From the NCBI GenBank assembly GCA_037381445.1, contig JARRQT010000008.1, positions 1-41,329 of the forward strand: a stretch of DNA of 41,329 bases. The letters are read 5' to 3'. The notes beneath the pieces are model-generated. The model saw nothing but the letters and a program-made list of their open reading frames with translations. It was not told the origin of the DNA and did no database searches. The translations under genes and the position numbers were made by a program. Source of the stretch: Calditrichia bacterium. Lineage in GTDB: Bacteria; Calditrichota; Calditrichia; RBG-13-44-9. Below are positions 5,323 to 39,796 of this stretch, piece by piece. Within the stretch, counting starts at the first letter, position 1. The number at the start of each line of letters is the position of its first letter.

Positions 5323-6072
5323 ATGGAAATAGTGGATTTAAAAAAACTTAATTTGCTTTTTAAACTGTGTCTGGCAGCGGGTGTCATCATATTTGCTCTG
5401 TTTCTCCGGTCAATCTGGTATAATCTGGGTGTGATTTTGCTGATGGGTTTGCTTCTACATTACCAGCGGATACGAATATTCCGGTTTCACTCCCTTTCAA
5501 AGCTGCTGGGATGGTATTTAATACTTATCTTTATTTTTAGATCATTTACAGGCTCGGGTAAAATTCTTTTTAACTTTCCTTTCGGTCTGAGGATGACCCT
5601 GGGAGGGATTACACAGGGTATATTGACAGTGGAACAGTTCCTGATGATATTTCTTTTGGTGGGAATATCTCTCTATTCTTCCAGCAAAAATGAGGTTTTT
5701 TATTATTTCAGCAAGCTTCCCGCTTTGGGAATGAAGGGTGAAAGCCCCGGCCTGCGGTTCGGAAGAATGAGCATGTTTGTTCTGTATCTCCTCCCTGAAA
5801 TATTTCAGCAGGGAAACCTGGTGAGGCGGCAATTGCAGCAGGGCAGAACGGGAGGCCGGCATATCCGCCGCCGTTTCGGACAGGTTTTCCAGGCGATGGG
5901 CGATTTTGTGGTTGAGGTGCTGAGGAAAGCGGAATTGCTTTATCCGGAATTTGTGGATAATAATAATCTTGGGGAAGCCCGGACGATCCCCGTCCTGAAT
6001 CTGAGGCATGCCTTGATTTTCAGCACATTCCTAAGTCTGCATGTGGTCTTTTTCTGGATGTGGCTCGTATGA
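5323..6072 (+). CDS. divergent EcfT/CbiQ-like membrane protein
   Basis: About 5 TM segments; MTLGGITQG, LYLLPEIFQQ (cf. lRFiP.l.ee), VLRKAELL (cf. al.rA..la); lies immediately before truA with ATGA overlap, as ecfT often does. Confidence 0.55.
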   Translation: MEIVDLKKLNLLFKLCLAAGVIIFALFLRSIWYNLGVILLMGLLLHYQRIRIFRFHSLSKLLGWYLILIFIFRSFTGSGKILFNFPFGLRMTLGGITQGILTVEQFLMIFLLVGISLYSSSKNEVFYYFSKLPALGMKGESPGLRFGRMSMFVLYLLPEIFQQGNLVRRQLQQGRTGGRHIRRRFGQVFQAMGDFVVEVLRKAELLYPEFVDNNNLGEARTIPVLNLRHALIFSTFLSLHVVFFWMWLV

Positions 6073-8787: not shown

Positions 8788-10032
8788 ATGATTGAACGCT
8801 ATACTTTGCCCGCCATGGGCAAAATATGGGAAGACGAGAATAAATACCGGATCTGGCTGCAGATAGAAGTCCTGGCGTGCGAGGCGCAGGCGGAACTGGG
8901 GATCATCCCGGCGGAGGCTGTGAAGGAAATCGAGGAAAAAGCCCGCTTCGATGTCGAAAAAATACTTAAAATTGAAGAAACCGTTCAGCACGATGTCATC
9001 GCCTTTTTGACGAATGTGGCGGAATACGTGGGACCCAATTCGCGCTACATTCATTTCGGGATGACCTCCTCTGATATTCTGGACACCACGCTGGCGGTTC
9101 AGATGAAGCAGTCTGGTGAGCTGCTTCTTGAGAAGCTTAAAGAGATGAGAGATTTCCTGGCGGCCCGCTGTCTGGAGTTCAAAGTCGGTTTGAAACTGGC
9201 GCTCTGGTACAGCGACACGTTGCGGAGCATCCGCAGACTGGAAAATGCCATCGAGACCGTTTCTGTGGGACAGATTTCCGGAGCGGTAGGCACATATGAT
9301 CACCTGGACCCGCAGGTGGAGGAATATGTGTGCAGCAAGCTGGATCTGGAACCGGCTGCCATTTCCACGCAGATCATTCAGCGGGACCGCCATGCGGAAT
9401 ATCTCAACACGCTGGCGCTCATTGGCGCCGGGCTGGAGAAAATTGCGGTGGAAATCCGGCATCTGCAGAAAACCGAGGTGCTGGAAGCAGAGGAACCATT
9501 CGGAAAAGGGCAAAAGGGGTCCTCCGCCATGCCGCATAAAAAGAATCCCATCATTTGTGAGCGGATTACCGGAATGGCCCGGCTTCTGCGCGGCTATGCC
9601 GCAACAGGCATGGAGAATATCGCCCTGTGGCATGAACGCGATATTTCGCATTCTTCTGTGGAACGGGTCATCCTGCCGGACTCGACCATCACACTGTACT
9701 ATATGCTGCATAAAACCGTCCAGGTTCTTTCCGGTCTGGTGGTGCATCCGGAGCAGATGCGGGAAAACCTGGAGATCACCCATGGGCTCATTTATTCACA
9801 GCCTATCTTGCTGAAGCTGATCGAAAAAGGGCTCACGCGCGAAGAGGCATACCGGCTCGTTCAAAGCAATGCCATGCAGGTTTGGGAAAAGAAAGAAAAT
9901 TTTGTAAATTTATTGAAGAAAGATGAAGCGGTGATGCAATATCTGTCGGGCGCGGAAATTGATTTAATTTGCAATTTGGAAAATCGCCTTAAGAACGTAA
10001 ATTATATATTCAAGAAGTTGAATCTTTTATGA
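8788..10032 (+). CDS. purB: adenylosuccinate lyase with an internal in-frame deletion of about 17 aa (catalytic His motif missing)
   Basis: MIERY, HDVIAF, HFGMTSSD, SGAVGT, STQIIQRDRH, KGSSAMPHKKNP, LWHERDISHSS. Reads LEFK-VGLKLALW where homologues have an intervening GRTHG.HAEPTT. Confidence 0.93.
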   Translation: MIERYTLPAMGKIWEDENKYRIWLQIEVLACEAQAELGIIPAEAVKEIEEKARFDVEKILKIEETVQHDVIAFLTNVAEYVGPNSRYIHFGMTSSDILDTTLAVQMKQSGELLLEKLKEMRDFLAARCLEFKVGLKLALWYSDTLRSIRRLENAIETVSVGQISGAVGTYDHLDPQVEEYVCSKLDLEPAAISTQIIQRDRHAEYLNTLALIGAGLEKIAVEIRHLQKTEVLEAEEPFGKGQKGSSAMPHKKNPIICERITGMARLLRGYAATGMENIALWHERDISHSSVERVILPDSTITLYYMLHKTVQVLSGLVVHPEQMRENLEITHGLIYSQPILLKLIEKGLTREEAYRLVQSNAMQVWEKKENFVNLLKKDEAVMQYLSGAEIDLICNLENRLKNVNYIFKKLNLL

Positions 10033-10045
10033 ACGGAGGAAAACG

Positions 10046-10747
10046 GTGAAGATACAGGAAACTCTGGCTGAGGGAAAAACCAAAAAGATTTATGCCACAG
10101 ATGAGACCGACCAGTTGATTATGGAATTCCTGGATGTGATTCCCCAGGAAACCAGTAAGAAGGCGACCTTAAAGGGGAAGGGAGCAATTAACGCAGCCAT
10201 TTCGGCATATCTGTTCGATTATTTGGGAAGTTATAATGTGCCAACCCATTTTATTAAACAATTGGATGATAACAGTTTGGTGGTAAAAAAACTGGATATG
10301 ATTCCTTTCAAAATGGTCATATGGAATCTGGCTTGCGACAGCCTGGCAAAACGCCTGGGGTTGAAGGACGGGACGGTACTGGAAACGCCCGTTCTGGAAT
10401 TGTATCTCAAGAATGCCAAACTGAAAAACCCACTGATTAATGATTACCATGCCTATGCACTGGGACTCTGCGACAGAAGCGAGATGGGTTCCATTGTGCG
10501 GATCGCCACCAAGGTAAACGCGGTGCTGAAATCTTTTTTCTATCGAAAAAAGCTCACCCTGGCAAACTTCGAACTTGAATTCGGGAAATCGGGCAGCCAG
10601 GTGTTGATGGGAGATGAACTTTCCCCGGATACTTTTACCGTATGGGATGATGTGGATACCGACAAAATGGATAAGAAACCATTTCAAATTACACCTGAAG
10701 CTGCAAAAACGGTATATCCGAAATTGCATGAACGTCTTCTAAAATAA
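10046..10747 (+). CDS. purC: SAICAR synthetase (PurC)-fold protein with a degenerate active site
   Basis: EGKTKKIY, KGKGAIN, VPTHFI, VKKLDMIP, ELYLKN, LEFG, GDELSPDT, KMDK; located after purB; GTG start with GGAGG SD. Confidence 0.85.
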   Translation: MKIQETLAEGKTKKIYATDETDQLIMEFLDVIPQETSKKATLKGKGAINAAISAYLFDYLGSYNVPTHFIKQLDDNSLVVKKLDMIPFKMVIWNLACDSLAKRLGLKDGTVLETPVLELYLKNAKLKNPLINDYHAYALGLCDRSEMGSIVRIATKVNAVLKSFFYRKKLTLANFELEFGKSGSQVLMGDELSPDTFTVWDDVDTDKMDKKPFQITPEAAKTVYPKLHERLLK

Positions 10748-10766: not shown

Positions 10767-11420
10767 ATGCCATTTACAAAATACGGTCTGGGATTGATGA
10801 TCGGCAGTTGGCTGATATTTCTGTTCTTTCTGATTCTCTCATTTTATGTGCAGCAGACAGTGGTGATTATCTTCGCAGTTATTACCGGCATATTCAGCAT
10901 ATTTAATTTATACTTTTTCCGGGATCCGGAGCGTACAATCCCGGCCGATCCTCAGGCCATTCTGGCTCCCGCGGACGGGAAAATTGTCCAGATAACCGAA
11001 GTTGATGAACACGACTTTTTCAAGGAAAAGGTGACGCGGGTCAGCATTTTTCTTTCCGTGTTCAATGTGCATGTCAACCGGAATCCCATCGGCGGACGGG
11101 TTGAATATTTCGCTTATAACCGGGGCAGATTCCTGGCGGCTTTTAACGATAAGGCTTCGCTCGAAAATGAGCAAACCGCCATCGGCATCATAGGAGAACA
11201 GAACCGCAAGGTCATGTTCAAACAGATTGCCGGCATCATTGCCCGGCGCATCGTCTGCAATTTGCGGGAAGGCTACAAGGTAAAGGCCGGAGAGCGTATG
11301 GGAATGATCCGCTACGGCTCGCGGGCTGATATTTTTTTCCGGACCGAAGATGTGGACCTCAGGGTAAAACTTGGCGATAAAGTCAGCGGAGGTGAATCAA
11401 TTATTGGAGTATTCCATTGA
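10767..11420 (+). CDS. psd: phosphatidylserine decarboxylase proenzyme (short type)
   Basis: FFRDPER, APADGKI, IFLSVFNVHVNR, QIAG, autocleavage motif YGSRAD. Confidence 0.95.
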   Translation: MPFTKYGLGLMIGSWLIFLFFLILSFYVQQTVVIIFAVITGIFSIFNLYFFRDPERTIPADPQAILAPADGKIVQITEVDEHDFFKEKVTRVSIFLSVFNVHVNRNPIGGRVEYFAYNRGRFLAAFNDKASLENEQTAIGIIGEQNRKVMFKQIAGIIARRIVCNLREGYKVKAGERMGMIRYGSRADIFFRTEDVDLRVKLGDKVSGGESIIGVFH

Positions 11421-12220
11421 AAGTGAAAACCAACTGGGTGCCCAGCGCCTTTACCATGGGAAATTTGTTTTTCGGATATTTTTCCGTTGTCCTGTCCGCC
11501 AATGATAAATTCATTCAAGCCTCCTGGCTGGTGGTAGCGGCGGCTGTGCTGGATGCGCTGGATGGCAAAATCGCGCGCCTGGCCAAAGCTTCTTCGCACT
11601 TCGGCGTGGAATATGATTCGCTCGCGGACGTAGTCTCGTTTGGATTCGCGCCCTCTTTCCTGGCCTACAAATCGGTTTTCAATCACTGGGGAACAGTGGG
11701 CCTATTCATCAGTTTTGCGCCGCTGGTATTTGGCTCAATCCGGCTGGCCAGGTTCAACATCCGCCTGAAGGGTTTTGACAAGGACCATTTTGAAGGTCTC
11801 CCGATACCGGCAGCCGCCATTACCATTGTTACTTTTCTGGTATTCAACTTTGAATTCTGGGGGTATCTGCGCTGGGAAAAGGTGTTTCTTTTCATCGTGC
11901 TGGTGGTCTCCGTTTTAATGGTCACCACGGTTCGTTATGAGACGCTGCCTGATTTTTCCCTGCAGAAGGATGCCCCCAACCGTTCGAGATTTCTTATAGT
12001 GCTTATCGGTGTAATTTTGATTATCATCTTTCCGCAGGAATCCTTTTTTCCGCTGGCTGCTTTGTTCGTCTTGTCCGGGCCGGTGAATTTGTTCTGGCAT
12101 CTGCTGGTGGACGGTCCCTCCGGAAAGTCAAAAAATATGAAGGAAATAGAAGATGAAAGCAATCGTCAAAGTGATACTCAAAAACGGAATTCTGGATCCT
12201 CAGGGAAAAGCGGTAAATAA
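11417..12220 (+). CDS. pssA: CDP-diacylglycerol--serine O-phosphatidyltransferase
   Basis: CDP-alcohol phosphotransferase motif DALDGKIAR...FGVEYDSLADVVSFG; RLARFN; FEGLPIP; adjacent to psd. Confidence 0.94.
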   Translation: MKVKTNWVPSAFTMGNLFFGYFSVVLSANDKFIQASWLVVAAAVLDALDGKIARLAKASSHFGVEYDSLADVVSFGFAPSFLAYKSVFNHWGTVGLFISFAPLVFGSIRLARFNIRLKGFDKDHFEGLPIPAAAITIVTFLVFNFEFWGYLRWEKVFLFIVLVVSVLMVTTVRYETLPDFSLQKDAPNRSRFLIVLIGVILIIIFPQESFFPLAALFVLSGPVNLFWHLLVDGPSGKSKNMKEIEDESNRQSDTQKRNSGSSGKSGK

Positions 12221-12404
12221 TGCCTTGCACCATCTGGGTTTCACCGGCTTTGATGATGTGCGGATCGGAAAGCACATCGAAATGAAACTGGAAGCGGCCG
12301 ATAAAAATGAAGCCGGAAAACTGGTTGAGGAGGCATGTAAAAAATTGCTGGCAAATCCGGTAATTGAAGAGTACACTTATGAGTTAATAGAGGAAGAGAA
12401 GTGA
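12153..12404 (+). CDS. purS: FGAM synthase subunit PurS
   Basis: [31 protein letters not shown]. Confidence 0.96.
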
Positions 12405-13081
12405 AAACTGCAGTTATCGTTTTTCCCGGATCGAATTGTGATCACGATATGTATTACGCCTTGAAAAAGGTGATGGGAGCCGAGGTCTCTTTCCTATGGC
12501 ATCAGGAACCGTCGCTCGATGACTTTGAAGCGGTTGTTCTGCCCGGCGGATTTTCCTATGGCGATTATCTGCGCGCCGGGGCCATTGCCCGGTTTTCGCC
12601 CATAATGCAGGGGGTGATCCGCTTCGCAAAACGCGGGAAGCTTGTATTGGGCATCTGTAATGGTTTCCAGATCCTGACAGAAAGCGGACTGCTGCCCGGG
12701 GCATTGATGCGGAATGAGAACTTAAGGTTTGTCTGCAAACATGTTTACATCCGCACGGAAAACAATCAAACCCGGTTTACCAAATCATTGCAGCCCGGGC
12801 AGGTGCTGAAAATCCCGGTTGCCCATGGCGAAGGAAATTATTTCATGGATGCTGATGGTCTGAAAAAGCTGCAGGACAACAACCAGATCGTTTTTCGTTA
12901 TACGTCCGGACCAGGAGTACCGGAAAAAGAAAAAAATCCGAATGGCTCTATTGATAACATCGCCGGTATTATCAATTCCGAAGGGAATGTGATGGGAATG
13001 ATGCCGCATCCCGAAAGAGCTATTGAGTTGTTGCTGGGGAGCGAGGATGGACGTCTTGTCTTTGAGTCAATTTTATCCTGA
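12401..13081 (+). CDS. purQ: FGAM synthase glutaminase subunit PurQ
   Basis: [27 protein letters not shown] (catalytic Cys), AHGEG, NPNGS, MMPHPER. Confidence 0.97.
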
Positions 13082-13101: not shown

Positions 13102-13365
13102 ATGCGTAAAAAGAGTTTAGGATGGATCTTATTAATTGTTTTTTTCGGAGCTCTGATAGGGAGTGCTTTGGGGGAAGTCCTGGCTTTTGTTTTGCCTGCC
13201 GGCGTCGTGCGGGAATTTTTTCTCCGTTCCGCGGTCTTCAATCTGGGCCCGGCAACCTTAAATCTGGTAATTTTGAAATTTACTCTTGGTTTCAGTTTGA
13301 AGCTGAATGTCATCGGCGTCATCGGCGTTATTTTGGCCGGTTACTTTTTACGCTGGGCACAGTAG
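13102..13365 (+). CDS. small membrane protein (DUF4321-like)
   Basis: AAGGAGG SD; GALIGSALGE...P.TLNL.I..FTLGF.LKLN..G.IG pattern recalled for DUF4321. Confidence 0.7.
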   Translation: MRKKSLGWILLIVFFGALIGSALGEVLAFVLPAGVVREFFLRSAVFNLGPATLNLVILKFTLGFSLKLNVIGVIGVILAGYFLRWAQ

Positions 13366-13445
13366 TTTAAAATTTGTATATTATAAGAAACCGGGAAAGT
13401 TTATCCCGGTTAAATGGATATAAACAATAATTAAGGAGTCAAATT

Positions 13446-13712
13446 ATGTTTGGCATTGGCCCACCCGAATTGCTGGTAGTTTTTTTAATTATCCTTATCC
13501 TGTTTGGAGCAAAAAGGTTGCCTGAACTGGCGCGCTCTTTGGGTAAATCGATAAATGAATTTAAGAGTGCCACTCAAAACATCAAAAATGATCTGGATTT
13601 TACCTCTAATGACCAGCCGCTTCCCAATGAGAAATCCAAGGCACAGCAGGCTTCAGCCAAGGGGGAGTCAAAAACTTCTTCTGAGGAGAACAAGGAAAAT
13701 CTCGCTGGATAA
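13446..13712 (+). CDS. tatA: twin-arginine translocase TatA/E subunit
   Basis: MFGIGPPELLVVFLIILILFGAKRLPELARSLGKSINEFK; AAGGAG SD. Confidence 0.94.
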   Translation: MFGIGPPELLVVFLIILILFGAKRLPELARSLGKSINEFKSATQNIKNDLDFTSNDQPLPNEKSKAQQASAKGESKTSSEENKENLAG

Positions 13713-33609: not shown

Positions 33610-36600
33610 ATGAATACCAGCAAACAAAACCGGATAGTTGTGGTCAGTTTCTTTCTGGCCCTGGTAATTTTAACAGTAAGTAACTTGATGTCTTTCCGGT
33701 CCAGTTCGGCTGCTTCTGATACGAATCACAGGGTAAAGGATACCTATGATTTGCTGATCACTATGCGATCGACTTTAAGCACGCTGCAGGATGCGGAGAC
33801 CGGGGTACGCGGGTATGTCATCACGGGGGAAGAACATTATCTGGGACCCTACCATCGCGCACTATCTGTTATCGATGAAAAGCTGGGGGCAATAAGCCAG
33901 CTATCCCACCATGCCGCTTTCGATATCCGAAGTCTGGATACACTCCAAATCCTGACTTCGCTCAAGCTGGCTTACCTGGAGAAAAAAATTGCAGCAAGGA
34001 GAAGCCAAGGTTTCGAAGAAGCTCGTCTGATGACCCTGACTGACGAAGGAAAAAACGAAATGGACCAGATCCGTGCCTTGCTGGCGCGAATTCAGAACAA
34101 AGAAGAGGCAACGTTAGCCAAAAATCTGGTGCTGGGACTTAAATATACCCATCGGGAAAATTTTCTGAAGTCTGCCGCAACATTCTTCAGTTTTATTTTG
34201 CTCCTGCTGGCCTTCTCACTGCTTGCTATCCAGCTGCGGCAGCAGCGTAACACGGAAAAGATTCTTCGCAGCGTCAATGAGAGATTTTCACTGCTGGTGA
34301 ACGGCGTCAAAGAGTATGCGCTGTGTTTACTGGATCCTGAGGGAAGAGTTGTTGGCTGGAATAAGGGGGCGGAGCGCCTGATGGGTTACAGGGAGGAAAA
34401 CATTTTAAATTCTCATAATTCCTGTTTTTATCCGGAGGAGGAGATTCGGGATGGCAGGCCGGATCTATTACTGAAAGTTGCTGCCGAAACAGGGCGACAT
34501 GAGGAAGAAGGCTGGCGGTTGCGAAAAGACGGCTCCCGGTTCTGGGCCAGTGAACTGGTTACGCCCCTGAGAGATCCGCAGGGCGCTCTGGAGGGTTACG
34601 CGAAATTGACCCGTGACCTGACTCTGCAGAAAGAAATGGAAGGAACGGTTCAGATACGGGCCGAGCAGCAGGCAGCCATTGCAGAGCTGGGACAGAAAGC
34701 GCTGGAAGGCACCGACCTGAATTTATTGATGGAAGAGACCGTCTATGTGGTTGCCGAAATCCTGGATGTGGATTATTGCAAAATTTTGGAGCTTCTACCT
34801 TCCGGTACAAAACTGCTGCTCAAGGCTGGTGTGGGTTGGAAGGAGGGGTACGTGGGGAAGGCGTATGTGGAGGCTGAAATAAATTCACAGGCAGCATTTA
34901 CCCTTAAAACCAATTCGCCCGTCATCGTAGAGAATTTGAACAGTGAGACCCGCTTTTCCGTCCCGGCCCTGCTGCGGGAACACCAGGTGGTTAGTGGAGT
35001 GAGTGTCATCATTCCCGGGGAAAAGCAGCCTTATGGTGTGCTGGGGATTCACACCAGAACACATCGGAAATTCAGCGAAGATGACATTTATTTCCTGCTG
35101 GCGGTTGCCAACATTCTGAGCACCGCCATTGGCCGTAAAAACGCCGAGGAAAATTTGCGTATCAAAGACAGCGCCATCGAATCGTCTCTGAATGCCATTG
35201 CCCTGGGGGATTTGAATGGTATAATTTCATATGCTAATCCTTCATTTCAGAAGATGTGGGGGTATGATTCATTCGACGAAATTATCGGCAAAAACATACT
35301 GGAATTCTGGCAGGAAAAAGAAGCTGCCCAAAATGTTATGAATGTCGTCCTCTCCCGGGGATCCTGGTCGGGAGAGCTGAAGGGAAAAAGAAAAAACGGT
35401 TCGGTTTTCGATACTCAGCTAAGCAGCACGGTGGTAAGGGACAAAAATGGCCAGCCTTTACGCGCCATGGCTTCCATCATGGATATAACCCCGCGTAAAA
35501 AAATGGAATCAGCCCTGCGGGAAAGTGAGCTCTCTTACCGGACGCTGGCGGAAAATCTTCCGGGCATTGTCTACCGGGTATACCTCCGGGAAAAGCACCG
35601 TATGCAGTTCTTTAACAGGGCAGCCTCCCAAATTACGGGATATACTGAAGAAGAATTAAAATCCGGTGAGGTCTGCTCACTGGATCCGTTGATTCTCCCC
35701 GAAGACCGTTCGGGAGTTGTGGCAGAAGTCAGGAACGCTGTTCGGGAGAAAAGACCGTTTAAAATAGAATACCGGCTCAGGCACAAGGACGGTAGCATCC
35801 GTTATTTATTGGAACAGGGCATCCCGGTTGCGAACGGGGACGGAAAAGTCTGGTGCATCGACGGTATTGTGAATGACATTACCGAACGCAGGGAAGCTGA
35901 AAAGAAGCAAAGAGAGCAGGCGGAGATGCTGAGCACCATTATCAAAAATATCCCGGTGATGATTACCAGGTATGATGCTGCAGGTAACATTCATCTTTTG
36001 AATAATGAATTTGAACGGCTGACAGGTTACACAACAGAGGAACTGCCGGGAGTGAATTTGATGGAATTGTGTTATCCCGACCCCGATTACCGTCAGGAAG
36101 TCTGGAACTATATGGCGTCAGCGCAACCCGGCTGGCGGGATTTAAATATTACTACCCGTTACGGAAATAAGCTGAAAAGTGCCTGGGCCAATGTGAGGCT
36201 TTCCGATGGTTCGCAGATTGGTATCGGGATCGATGTGGGAGAGCAGCGCAAGGCGGAGGCCATGCTCAGGGAGCAGGCGCAGGTCATCGATCAAATCCAT
36301 GACGGGGTGATCTCCACTGATCTGGATGGCTTTGTGACCAGCTGGAATAAGGGAGCGGAACGGATTTTTGGATACAACGCAAGGGAAATGATCGGCAAAC
36401 ATATTTCAAATGTATATTCCAAAGATCAGCACGAATTTCTTGAAAAAGAAATTGTAGTACCTCTTAAAGAGAAAGGGAACCATGATGTTGTGGTGAGAAT
36501 GCGTCACAAATCGGGAAGACCGTTTTATGCCCATCTTGTCCTTTCGCTGCTCCGGGATGAGGATGGGAAGCTAAAAGGCATGATCGGATATACGCAGGAC

Positions 36601-39081
36601 GTAACGGAAAGGGAAGAATTTCAGCAAAAACTGCAGGAGCAGAACCGGCGGGTGACAACCATCCTGGAAAGCATCAGCGACGCTTTCTTCTCCCTGGACA
36701 GGAACGGATGTTTTACCTATGTCAACAGCCGCGCGGAGCAGCTATTAAAAAAATCTGCCGAAAATTTGCTGTCGAAGAACGTCTGGGAGGTGTTTCCGGA
36801 AGCGGTCACTTCCCGCTTTGCGGACTTGTCAAAGAACGCTACAGCTAACCGGGTGCCGGTTACTTTTGTGGAATATTACCATCCGTATGATTCGTGGTTC
36901 GAGGTGCATGTTTATCCTTCGGAAGAGGGAATTTCCGTTTACTTCCAGGATGTGAGCATTCAGAAGCGGGCCGAAATCGAGCTGCGCAGGGTCAACCGGG
37001 CACTGCGTACCCGCAGTGAATTGAGCCAGACAATTGTCAGGATTTCCACAGAGCAGGAGCTGCTCAATCAGGCCTGTTCCATCATCGTGGAAAGTGGGGG
37101 ATACCGCCTGGCTTGGGTGGGATATGCCGTATATGACAAAACCAAGTCAATTCGCCCTGTGGCGCAGAAGGGCTATGAACACGGCTATCTCCAAACGGTC
37201 AAATTGACTTGGGCAGACCGGGAAAGAGGACGCGGTCCGGCAGGCACCACCGTCCGATCCGGAAAGCCGGCCATTGCCCAGCACATTCAATCCGATCCCG
37301 ATTATGCCCCATGGCGCAAAGAAGCTGTCAGCAGGGGATACAGTTCCTCCATTGCGTTGCCCCTTAAATCGGAAAATCAGGTATTCGGGTGTCTTAATAT
37401 GTATGCCGCCGAACCGGATGCCTTCGATGAAGAGGAGGTCAGGCTGCTAAGTGATCTGGCAGATGATCTTGCCTTCGGCATAATAGCCCTGCGCAATCGT
37501 GAGGAGCGCATCAACGCGGAACAGGCCCTGCGGGAGAGTGAAAAACGGTATCATACGCTTTTTGAGGAATCCCCGGTCCCGTTATGGGAGGAAGATTTTA
37601 CTGAACTGAAAAAACAGATTGACCTGCTGAAAAAAAGAGGTGTCCGGCATTTCCGGCGTTATTTTGATGCCCGCCCTGACCTTGTGCAGGAACTTCTCGG
37701 CAAAGTAAAAATTATGGATATCAACCGGGCAGTATTAAAACTTCACGAGGCAGGCGACCGGGGTCAGCTTTTATCTGCGCTTTCCGGGTATTTCACGGAT
37801 GAATCTCTGGACACTTTTAAGGAGGAGTTACTGGCCGTGGCGGAAGGCCGCAGTTTCATTGAAAGGGAAACCACTATAAAAACCTTAAATCAGCAGGAGG
37901 CCAATGTTATTTTCCGGTGGATTGTGGTCCCGGGATACGAAGACGAATTTTCCAAAATACTGGTGTCAGTCACCGATATTACCGCCCGCAAAAAGGCGGA
38001 ACAGGCTTTGCGTTTAAGCGAGGCACGTTACCGGGGATTGCTGGAGACCGCCCCTGACGGCATCATCACCATCGATGGCAGCGGCAATATTGTTCTGCTG
38101 AACCGGCAGGGCGAGAAAATGTTTGGTTACAGTCAGGAAGAATTGATCGGAAAGCCGGTGGATGTGTTGTTGCCCCGCGGGCTGAGAAAAAAACACAAAA
38201 ATTACCGTCAGGCTTATTTAATGAATCCCGAAACCCGACCCATGGGCAGCGGTTTGGAACTGCTCAGCCGGAATAAGAACAGACATCTGTTTCCGGTGGA
38301 AGTCAGTTTAAGTCCGCTGGTCAGCGAAAAGGAGATGCTGGTCACGGCGGTGGTGCGGGATATTTCGGAGCGAAAAGAGGCGGAAGCAAAACTCCGCAAA
38401 AATCAGGAACAGCTCCGCATGCTCTCCACCAATCTTCTGACCATTCGCGAAGAAGAGCGTGAACACATCGCCCGGGAAATCCATGATGAACTGGGACAGC
38501 AGCTCACCGGCTTGAAAATGGATCTGTACTGGATAAAAAATCGGCTCGAAAAACGTGAGTACCTTGACAATATTCCGAACCTGAAAAACAAGATGATGTT
38601 TATGTCGGGAATGATCGATAAGAGCATCAAATCGGTACGGAGGATTGCCACGGAATTGCGGCCCGGAATACTGGATGATGTGGGGCTGCCCGCGGCCATA
38701 GAATGGCAGGGAAGGGAATTCGAGCAGCGCACCGGTATCACCTGCCGGATAAAAAACCTGGTTCAGGACATTCGGCTGGACCGGAAACAATCCATTGCGG
38801 TCTTCCGCATATTTCAGGAATCCCTGACTAATGTAGCGCGCCATGCCGGCGCCACAGAAGTGAATGTGGAGATCAAAAAATTCAAAGGAATTTTCACTCT
38901 GCGTGTGATGGACAATGGCCGGGGCATTAGAGAAGAGGAGATGGGGAAATCCAGTTCGCTGGGAATACTGGGTATTCGGGAGCGGGCTTTGTCCCTGGGC
39001 GGACAGATTGAAATAAAAGGAGAGGAGAACAGCGGGACAATGGTCACGCTGAAAATTCCGCTGCAGAGTGCAAAAAATTAG
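33610..39081 (+). CDS. multi-sensor histidine kinase (CHASE3, 8 PAS, 2 GAF, HisKA_3, HATPase_c)
   Basis: CHASE3 DAETGVRGYVITG; repeated PAS/PAC motifs (WNKGAERL.GY, RKDGS); two GAF domains; EREHIAREIHDELGQ; FQESLTNVARHA; DNGRG. Confidence 0.95.
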   Translation: MNTSKQNRIVVVSFFLALVILTVSNLMSFRSSSAASDTNHRVKDTYDLLITMRSTLSTLQDAETGVRGYVITGEEHYLGPYHRALSVIDEKLGAISQLSHHAAFDIRSLDTLQILTSLKLAYLEKKIAARRSQGFEEARLMTLTDEGKNEMDQIRALLARIQNKEEATLAKNLVLGLKYTHRENFLKSAATFFSFILLLLAFSLLAIQLRQQRNTEKILRSVNERFSLLVNGVKEYALCLLDPEGRVVGWNKGAERLMGYREENILNSHNSCFYPEEEIRDGRPDLLLKVAAETGRHEEEGWRLRKDGSRFWASELVTPLRDPQGALEGYAKLTRDLTLQKEMEGTVQIRAEQQAAIAELGQKALEGTDLNLLMEETVYVVAEILDVDYCKILELLPSGTKLLLKAGVGWKEGYVGKAYVEAEINSQAAFTLKTNSPVIVENLNSETRFSVPALLREHQVVSGVSVIIPGEKQPYGVLGIHTRTHRKFSEDDIYFLLAVANILSTAIGRKNAEENLRIKDSAIESSLNAIALGDLNGIISYANPSFQKMWGYDSFDEIIGKNILEFWQEKEAAQNVMNVVLSRGSWSGELKGKRKNGSVFDTQLSSTVVRDKNGQPLRAMASIMDITPRKKMESALRESELSYRTLAENLPGIVYRVYLREKHRMQFFNRAASQITGYTEEELKSGEVCSLDPLILPEDRSGVVAEVRNAVREKRPFKIEYRLRHKDGSIRYLLEQGIPVANGDGKVWCIDGIVNDITERREAEKKQREQAEMLSTIIKNIPVMITRYDAAGNIHLLNNEFERLTGYTTEELPGVNLMELCYPDPDYRQEVWNYMASAQPGWRDLNITTRYGNKLKSAWANVRLSDGSQIGIGIDVGEQRKAEAMLREQAQVIDQIHDGVISTDLDGFVTSWNKGAERIFGYNAREMIGKHISNVYSKDQHEFLEKEIVVPLKEKGNHDVVVRMRHKSGRPFYAHLVLSLLRDEDGKLKGMIGYTQDVTEREEFQQKLQEQNRRVTTILESISDAFFSLDRNGCFTYVNSRAEQLLKKSAENLLSKNVWEVFPEAVTSRFADLSKNATANRVPVTFVEYYHPYDSWFEVHVYPSEEGISVYFQDVSIQKRAEIELRRVNRALRTRSELSQTIVRISTEQELLNQACSIIVESGGYRLAWVGYAVYDKTKSIRPVAQKGYEHGYLQTVKLTWADRERGRGPAGTTVRSGKPAIAQHIQSDPDYAPWRKEAVSRGYSSSIALPLKSENQVFGCLNMYAAEPDAFDEEEVRLLSDLADDLAFGIIALRNREERINAEQALRESEKRYHTLFEESPVPLWEEDFTELKKQIDLLKKRGVRHFRRYFDARPDLVQELLGKVKIMDINRAVLKLHEAGDRGQLLSALSGYFTDESLDTFKEELLAVAEGRSFIERETTIKTLNQQEANVIFRWIVVPGYEDEFSKILVSVTDITARKKAEQALRLSEARYRGLLETAPDGIITIDGSGNIVLLNRQGEKMFGYSQEELIGKPVDVLLPRGLRKKHKNYRQAYLMNPETRPMGSGLELLSRNKNRHLFPVEVSLSPLVSEKEMLVTAVVRDISERKEAEAKLRKNQEQLRMLSTNLLTIREEEREHIAREIHDELGQQLTGLKMDLYWIKNRLEKREYLDNIPNLKNKMMFMSGMIDKSIKSVRRIATELRPGILDDVGLPAAIEWQGREFEQRTGITCRIKNLVQDIRLDRKQSIAVFRIFQESLTNVARHAGATEVNVEIKKFKGIFTLRVMDNGRGIREEEMGKSSSLGILGIRERALSLGGQIEIKGEENSGTMVTLKIPLQSAKN

Positions 39082-39166
39082 GAATTCTATTTCTTATAAA
39101 ACTTTCTTATATTTGCAGAGTGGAAATACCTGACAGGGATAACTGAATCTCCGGGAGATCAAAAAT

Positions 39167-39796
39167 ATGGTTAAAATATTAATTGCTGACGATCATGCCG
39201 TGGTGAGGGAAGGGTTAGGGCAGATACTGGTTGATTCTGATGACCGGTTTGAGGTGGTAAAAGCGAAAAACGGCAATGAGGTTCTGGAGCTCATGCGAAA
39301 ACAGAGATTTGATGTCGTTGTTCTGGATATCAGCATGCCGGAAAAGAACGGATTAGACCTGACAAAAGATTTGAAGAAAATGTACCCCAGCCTGCCTGTC
39401 ATCATTCTCAGTATGCATTCCGAGGATCAGTTTGGCCTGCGTGCCCTGCGTGCCGGCGCATCGGGTTATATGACTAAAGAAACCGCCCCCGAAGAATTGG
39501 TGCACGCTATCTGGCGGGTATACCAGGGCGGCAAGTACATCAGTCCCGCACTGGCGGAAAAACTGGCGCAGGATGTCAGCCATTCCATGGAAAAACTGCC
39601 CCATGAAAAGCTGTCCGACCGGGAATTTCAGGTGCTCTCGCTCATGGCCTCCGGCAAAAGCATGAAGGAGATAGCGGAAGAGTTGTCTCTCAGTGTGAAG
39701 ACTGTCAGTACCTACCGGTCACGGATCATCGAAAAAACCCATCTGAAAACCAATGCCGAACTCATCTCCTATGCCATTCAGAATAACCTGGTATAG
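39167..39796 (+). CDS. NarL/UvrY-type DNA-binding response regulator
   Basis: IADDHAVVREG, LDISMP, GASGYMTK, LuxR HTH LSDREFQV...IAEELSLSVKTVSTYR. Confidence 0.95.
   Translation: MVKILIADDHAVVREGLGQILVDSDDRFEVVKAKNGNEVLELMRKQRFDVVVLDISMPEKNGLDLTKDLKKMYPSLPVIILSMHSEDQFGLRALRAGASGYMTKETAPEELVHAIWRVYQGGKYISPALAEKLAQDVSHSMEKLPHEKLSDREFQVLSLMASGKSMKEIAEELSLSVKTVSTYRSRIIEKTHLKTNAELISYAIQNNLV

Follow-up and report, generated by a model that had tools for sequence, protein, structure and literature searches.

A gene for a PurC homologue (hereafter purC*) lies at positions 10046..10747 on the plus strand of a 41,329-nucleotide stretch of DNA from a Calditrichia bacterium (the window). Its product is a full-length short-type PurC of 233 amino acids, which keeps the ATP-side residues and has none of the seven residues of the CAIR, aspartate and Mg side. 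We consider it likely, at a probability of roughly 0.68, that purC* is the ancestral purC of its lineage, that it has lost the residues for catalysis, and that it is retained as a binding protein without catalysis, predicted to be a homodimer, which docks through a surface stripe on a partner outside purine synthesis. This reading draws on the retained fold, the residue loss, a second intact PurC in the same genome, purifying selection, repeated loss of catalysis in related lineages once other PurC types had arrived, and the finding that the stripe, predicted dimer face and ATP side are all conserved, each of which is evident from sequence comparison and structure prediction. PurC is regarded as a single-function textbook enzyme; such proteins are all annotated as SAICAR synthetases, and metabolic reconstructions miscount the purC* genes. 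The comparison reveals a natural experiment that took place in two phyla or more: a foreign PurC arrives, and the native gene gives up its catalytic side alone, keeping a surface that other PurCs let drift. It points to a hidden second function and names the residues that may serve it.

A full-length PurC homologue without its substrate side

The purC* reading frame starts with GTG and contains no internal stop, and a Shine-Dalgarno-like GGAGG (10034..10038, plus strand) is located 7 nt upstream. An earlier note on this DNA had described the frame as full-length, unshifted and well provided with a ribosome-binding site, which agrees with these observations. The gene order in the window is purB-purC*-psd-pssA-purS-purQ, all on the plus strand: purB (8788..10032), psd for phosphatidylserine decarboxylase (10767..11420), pssA for phosphatidylserine synthase (11417..12220), purS (12153..12404) and purQ (12401..13081). 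The most constant neighbor is psd. Among loci that bear the stripe described below and have enough flanking sequence, 188 of 190 have psd as the next gene downstream, 153 of 187 have purB upstream and 84 of 112 have purS/Q, in a set whose members are related, some possibly duplicates, and 80 of which were found by the stripe pattern. Several metagenome loci have purC* as the first gene of purC*-psd-pssA-purS-purQ. Promoter and terminator scans detected nothing specific at purC* or psd.

The neighboring purB of the window lacks 51 nt at 9184/9185. The gap is in frame, the product has 414 amino acids versus ~431 in relatives, and the GRTHG/GRSHG segment is absent. Because contigs from three of four sequencing runs (X1, X2 and X3, from two studies; the best-matching of the four runs is possibly the source sample itself) carry the extra 51 letters, the gap is most likely an assembly artefact. 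Runs X1 and X4 exactly match different parts of the window, which thus looks like a strain mosaic containing such an artefact.

Alignment with E. coli K-12 PurC (from NC_000913) revealed E90K, R94W, D129N, D175N, K177E, R199T and R215Q in purC*, as well as a remodelled loop at 36-41 (TSAGDG to VIPQETS); the earlier note had listed these changes from the sequence, and all of them are real. Retained residues are G10, K11, K13, S100, K123, E179, D191, E192, D196 and K211. Six of these (G10, K11, K13, K123, E179 and D191) form the ATP side, which is complete in the window protein, K11 being variable among orthologues. A study that includes archaeal PurCs assigns CAIR contacts to R94, S100, D175, R199 and R215 and an ADP contact to E179, and describes R94, D175 and R199 as fully conserved in the archaeal proteins (PMC3261824). 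In purC*, R94, D175, R199 and R215 are replaced by W, N, T and Q, and S100 is the only CAIR contact kept. E90, D129 and K177 have become K, N and E. In the human enzyme, Glu97 and Asp137 are reported to bridge two Mg ions (PMC9376930); we infer that they are equivalent to E90 and D129, and both Mg-bridging carboxylates are thus gone from purC*.

The protein matched PF01259 over residues 7-225 with 179.8 bits (gathering cut-off, 20). Its TIGR00081 score of 148.6 was below the curated cut-off of 189.9, versus 243.9 and 249.7 for orthologues that are the sole PurC of their genomes (G038 and G077, respectively). An AlphaFold2 model (pLDDT 93) has the two-domain SAICAR-synthase fold, Foldseek gave TM values of 0.88-0.90 to solved short PurCs (0.90 to 2GQR), and an ESM Atlas search returned PF01259 clusters only. 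Thus, purC* shares with short-type PurC (SAICAR synthetase, EC 6.3.2.6; PF01259, TIGR00081; 2GQR, 3NUA, 2YWV, 4FE2) the fold, the length, the ATP-side residues, the predicted dimer face and the ancestral place after purB. It differs in the loss of all seven CAIR, aspartate and Mg residues, in the sub-cut-off TIGR00081 score, and in a stripe conserved at positions which are hypervariable in other PurCs. With the catalytic residues lost, the fold kept and purifying selection acting (see below), purC* has the sequence marks of a pseudoenzyme.

The genome of the window (G000) has a second PF01259 gene, which encodes a 300-aa long-type PurC between plsY and gpsA on contig C53. This protein scored 416.7 bits with NF010568 (cut-off, 251), is also above the TIGR00081 cut-off and has all seven catalytic residues; purE, purF and purM are present in the genome as well. 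The existence of a second canonical purC, a point raised in the earlier note, is thus settled. The arrangement seen on C53 (L001, 810-3378), with the long purC between plsY and gpsA, occurs in most loci of the order, and therefore both PurC genes adjoin phospholipid-synthesis genes. In G068 (L182), a third PurC type follows plsY-gpsA.

Distribution of dead and intact copies and selection on them

In the 86 genomes of the phylum of the window, we detected the short copy in 67, another PurC type in 72, both in 56 and neither in 3. The 67 short-copy loci include 63 full-length genes, three with all seven catalytic residues (G038, G076 and G077, each the sole PurC found in its genome), one with six (G041) and 59 with zero to four. 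Among 34 full-length orthologues from the order of the window, 27 have none of the seven residues and seven have one. The loss pattern therefore recurs in close orthologues and is not due to chance. The replacement PurCs belong to three types, i.e., proteins of ~300 aa in families f1-f3, a PurC-PurE fusion of ~460 aa in f6, and proteins of ~340-370 aa in f4, f5 and f7.

A second phylum (that of G088; related records are named candidate division LCP-89 and Ca. Hatepunaea) had 55 full-length short copies in the 79 genomes searched, with all seven residues in 37, six in one and zero to five in 17. A long second copy was found in every one of the 17 genomes with zero to five residues. Twelve other two-copy genomes have a short copy that still holds all seven, so a second copy is insufficient for the loss of catalysis. 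Two more groups, the small phylum of G086 and Ca. Kryptoniota, have dead members as well. In two phyla, the same locus has an intact PurC as sole copy in good assemblies. In eight fragmented genomes (62-90% complete) of the phylum of the window, a dead copy was found without a full second PurC or with the second as a fragment. In a quick tree of 149 rows, in which 42 of 146 inner branches were unresolved, dead and live copies were intermingled, which is consistent with several independent losses of catalysis. As judged from this distribution, in which related genomes are not independent, dead copies arose repeatedly after the arrival of three unrelated PurC types.

Active PurCs at the same locus (G076, G077; LCP-89, Ca. 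Hatepunaea) share with purC* the purB-purC-psd-pssA-purS-purQ operon, or part of it, and the stripe (8-10 of ten positions). Unlike purC*, they hold the full catalytic set of seven residues, and most have no other PurC beside them. They presumably represent a bifunctional ancestral state. The gene has also been lost: purC* was cleanly deleted before psd in 14 genomes (eight of f5, five of genus g28, and G085), which keep psd-pssA, and it is therefore dispensable. Two further copies are disrupted, one split (G082, L180) and one with a single stop (G080, L178); neighboring genes are frameshifted too, and both cases are probably sequencing errors. In nearly all copies, the frame is thus intact.

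Selection was analyzed in nine within-family pairs with unsaturated synonymous sites (eight dead, three of which share genomes, and one live), a set that leaves out the gene of the window itself, as it has no unsaturated relative. In the dead pairs, dN/dS was 0.03-0.13 at dS of 0.11-1.10, and purB, psd and pssA gave similar values in the same pairs; the live pair had a dN/dS of 0.01. These values argue against decay and support the earlier proposal that the protein is kept under selection.

Constraint on the ATP side, the predicted dimer face and a probable surface stripe

Site rates in 75 dead copies obtained by unbiased family searches differed sharply between classes of positions. The CAIR, aspartate and Mg side had a rate of 1.60 (median over the protein, 0.93), the ATP side 0.42, the predicted dimer face 0.53 and the stripe, the slowest class, 0.28. 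In 39 live copies the rate of the CAIR side was 0.13. A further analysis gave a mean of 1.87 for the replaced substrate sites versus a median of 0.87. In the 34 orthologues of the order, position 90 is occupied by 12 different residues and positions 129, 175 and 199 by nine each; position 94 alone is restricted, to W, Y or H, which are also found there in 82 of 123 non-redundant dead copies. No new conserved residue was detected in the substrate pocket of the orthologues. As the former substrate sites evolve fastest and share no new residue, there is probably no new ligase here. Thus, the suggestion in the earlier note that the substrate site had been rewired, possibly into a new ligase, finds no support in orthologues, where the replaced residues are not conserved and these sites evolve faster than the protein average.

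The other suggestion made there, an ATP-binding scaffold or sensor, fared better in part. The ATP side does evolve slowly, and 30-34 of the 34 orthologues have retained K13, K123, E179 and D191; ATP binding itself is deduced from sequence. Over all 123 non-redundant dead copies, the ATP-side residues are kept in 62-82% and are eroded in some distant lineages, so nucleotide binding, if it occurs, may be secondary to the stripe. Dead clades beyond the order have Lys or Ser in place of D191, among them the copies of G150-G157 (L332-L338), which have Lys there and keep K13, K123 and E179. Some pseudokinases bind nucleotides independently of cations, and the D191-Lys copies would fit such a mode. 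The strongest constraint is on the separate stripe, which the first reading had missed.

The stripe has two parts. The first (10214..10243, plus strand; residues 57-66, FDYLGSYNVP) includes Y59, S62, Y63, N64 and P66 and covers the end of helix 45-62 and the next loop. The second (10499..10549, plus strand; residues 152-168) includes R152, K156, A159, K162, S163, R167 and K168 on one face of helix 144-167. Ten positions were scored: Y59, Y63, P66, R152, K156, A159, K162, S163, R167 and R/K168. Because the stripe was defined on f1-f3, it was tested on other sets, and it came out slowest again with f4 and f6 taken together (0.43, p 0.0002) and with the second phylum (0.28, p 5e-5). In 83 outgroup PurCs these positions were among the fastest (2.48), although this set was picked for absence of the stripe and only its variability is informative. 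Helical spacing and outgroup variability suggest that the stripe is surface-exposed; part of it could be internal helix-helix packing that merely marks the clade.

Among 111 non-redundant intact copies, which hold all seven catalytic residues by definition of the class, the stripe score is bimodal, with 0-5 in 74 and 8-10 in 37. Since intact PurCs carry it, the stripe is older than the loss of catalysis. The intact sole copy of G038, which belongs to f5, has a stripe score of 4/10, and its eight f5 relatives with a replacement cleanly lost the gene. This is suggestive, for one lineage, of the second job having been dropped first in f5. Matched proteins that are active with the stripe, dead with it and active without it are thus available for direct comparison.

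PurC dimers are known from solved structures. The predicted homodimer interface of purC* (10322..10462, plus strand; residues 93-139) includes P115, E118, N132, Y134, H135 and A138, with W93 in place of the catalytic R94. A four-copy structure prediction formed this dimer with a score of 0.79 (best control, 0.39; 20 of 30 solved dimers attain the mark, as does 1 of 23 monomers), the runs agreed in at least 90% of contacts and pLDDT was at least 85. Such a prediction may reflect memory of solved PurC dimers, and passing the mark shows likeness only. The dimer face provided the only confident contacts among the four copies, giving no sign of a higher oligomer, and no stripe contact was named; residues that were not named are uncertain, so stripe contacts may exist all the same.

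A probable second job and its possible partner

The data can be accommodated by the following model. The ancestral PurC would already have been moonlighting, combining SAICAR synthesis with a second job, as suggested by active sole-copy PurCs at the locus that carry the stripe. A foreign PurC would then arrive and take over SAICAR catalysis, freeing the CAIR, aspartate and Mg side from constraint, and the second job would keep the gene. The purC* dimer would likely still bind adenine nucleotide (K13, H68, K122, E178 and D190 are kept), which may tune docking through the stripe on something outside purine synthesis.

Family f6 is informative with regard to the partner. Its foreign operon comprises guaB, purA, purM, L, Q, H, CE, B, D, N and F as well as pyr genes (read in three genomes from first residues). 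No stand-alone purS was found across the family; native-type purE was not found, the fused PurE being the sole PurE; no native-type purF was found either, the genomes with a full purF having one copy, of the foreign type. The purC* locus no longer contains native purB. In spite of this, purC* is kept in 18 of 26 f6 genomes, and 17 full-length copies have stripe scores of 9-10/10 (15 copies) or 8 (two copies). Since most f6 genomes kept purC* after replacement of the whole pathway, the second job is likely outside the purine pathway, and retention of purC* is likely independent of the native purine enzymes. It might be argued that purC* is a scaffold for native PurB, PurSQL, PurE and PurF, a relic of a purinosome, as it is located between purB and purSQ in G000, and E. 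coli PurC is given as a central interactant of a two-hybrid network in a review (PMC10912719). This is highly improbable in view of f6, which excludes PurB, PurS/Q, PurE and PurF as partners, and of f5, which retains native-type purB, purE and purF and yet lost purC*. The f6 super-operon itself (L366-L371, L186-L192; G044, G040, G059 and others) encodes the ~460-aa PurC-PurE, together with a PurL of 1000 aa whose start is PurS-like, and has taken the place of the native pathway.

As a weak guess, which we would sooner doubt than adopt, the partner is the co-transcribed Psd/PssA phosphatidylethanolamine module or its membrane. A fuller and somewhat more doubtful version is that, in the ancestor of several FCB-related phyla, PurC was a nucleotide-binding dimer which docked by means of a dedicated surface on the Psd/PssA machinery and coupled membrane-lipid synthesis to nucleotide status, and that the replacements left a pure regulator; if true, it would expose a moonlighting function of a textbook enzyme. 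Against Psd/PssA, there are no co-eroding columns, and 14 genomes run psd-pssA without purC*. A covariation test detected no column of Psd, PssA, HtrA, Fsa, TruA or PurB that is conserved in genomes keeping purC* and lost in both loser groups, and a repeat with more genomes and four neighbors through Fsa again detected none. Of 39 pan-conserved Psd columns, none was changed in f5 and four were changed in the g28 losers. A fusion search over 8000 scored candidates of 460-2000 aa gave one match, whose PurC part is canonical and without the stripe. In this protein (P0399; 608 aa, one contig), a metallophosphoesterase is followed by a canonical PurC that lacks its N-terminal third; it is weak evidence and probably a frameshift artefact.

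Other explanations do not invoke a protein partner of this kind. It is conceivable, though unlikely, that what binds to the stripe is no protein but a small phosphorylated compound, nucleic acid or anionic lipid, and that PurC* is a sensor or a membrane- or RNA-binding dimer. The stripe is basic and aromatic (two Tyr, three Arg, two or three Lys), no co-varying surface was detected on the neighbors, and PurC is listed among unvalidated ppGpp binders in E. coli in a review (PMC10912719). However, it extends over 16 residues in one helix and onto another helix, and the small A159 and S163 within it are conserved, which would better fit packing against a large surface. A new ATP-dependent enzyme, a ligase or kinase with another substrate, could explain the slow ATP side, its four residues in nearly all orthologues of the order and the aromatic preference at position 94, and distant relatives of the fold include inositol phosphate kinases; but the pocket sites are the fastest (1.6-1.9) with no new conserved residue, both Mg-bridging carboxylates are absent, the aromatic residue at 94 is within the predicted dimer contact (93-138), and dead clades beyond the order have Lys or Ser instead of D191. 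We regard this possibility as improbable.

Still less can be said for the readings in which purC* has no new role. The gene might be redundant and slowly decaying, or it might owe its retention to cis effects on psd expression alone; the second purC, the 14 clean deletions and the constant place of the gene would agree with this. Decay is already largely refuted by the low dN/dS, by a frame broken only in G080 and G082, and by loss and conservation that are both site-specific; the cis effect is contradicted by clean deletions that leave psd-pssA intact. Taken together, we give this explanation very little credence. It is barely credible that purC* retains weak SAICAR synthetase activity, by itself or in a heterodimer with the other PurC: the fold and ATP side are intact and databases name such proteins PurC, but the CAIR contacts R94, D175 and R199 and the Mg ligands are lost, and the second PurCs fall into three unrelated types. 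We therefore favor a binding protein with a non-purine partner, within the probability given above.

We found no described conserved dead PurC in a literature search outside subscription journals and supplements; purC* is a putative pseudoenzyme, a known kind of protein, in a family without one found described. An orphan PurC of Rickettsia has reportedly been proposed to be an ATP sensor. No paper supporting this was found: the name PurC is absent from PMC5615194, and purC occurs only in a spacer in PMC2694212. Extra purC-like genes are known from archaea, some genomes having two as here; unlike purC*, these keep the CAIR contacts and one is truncated, and the account given describes neither a conserved dead family nor a second surface, although its authors speculate that some PurCs hold another or second activity (PMC3261824). 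The trypanosomatid prozyme of AdoMetDC and the dead deoxyhypusine synthase paralogue are, as described, also dead, selected copies which work by binding, but they arose through duplication, and each acts on the active copy from which it split (PMC5201418, PMC3663545). In contrast, purC* is the original gene of its lineage, which unrelated PurC types have displaced, and it has stayed on even where the native pathway is gone.

Several other genes of the window were observed. Two ORFs of 249 and 198 aa (5323-6072 and 514-1110, respectively) had no Pfam or NCBIfam matches; the 249-aa product is a conserved membrane protein encoded 5' of truA in several relatives. Downstream of purQ (13102-13712) are genes for an 87-aa membrane protein and an 88-aa protein that may resemble TatA. 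Finally, positions 33610-39796 encode an 1823-aa histidine kinase with CHASE3, GAF and multiple PAS domains, adjoining a LuxR-type response regulator.
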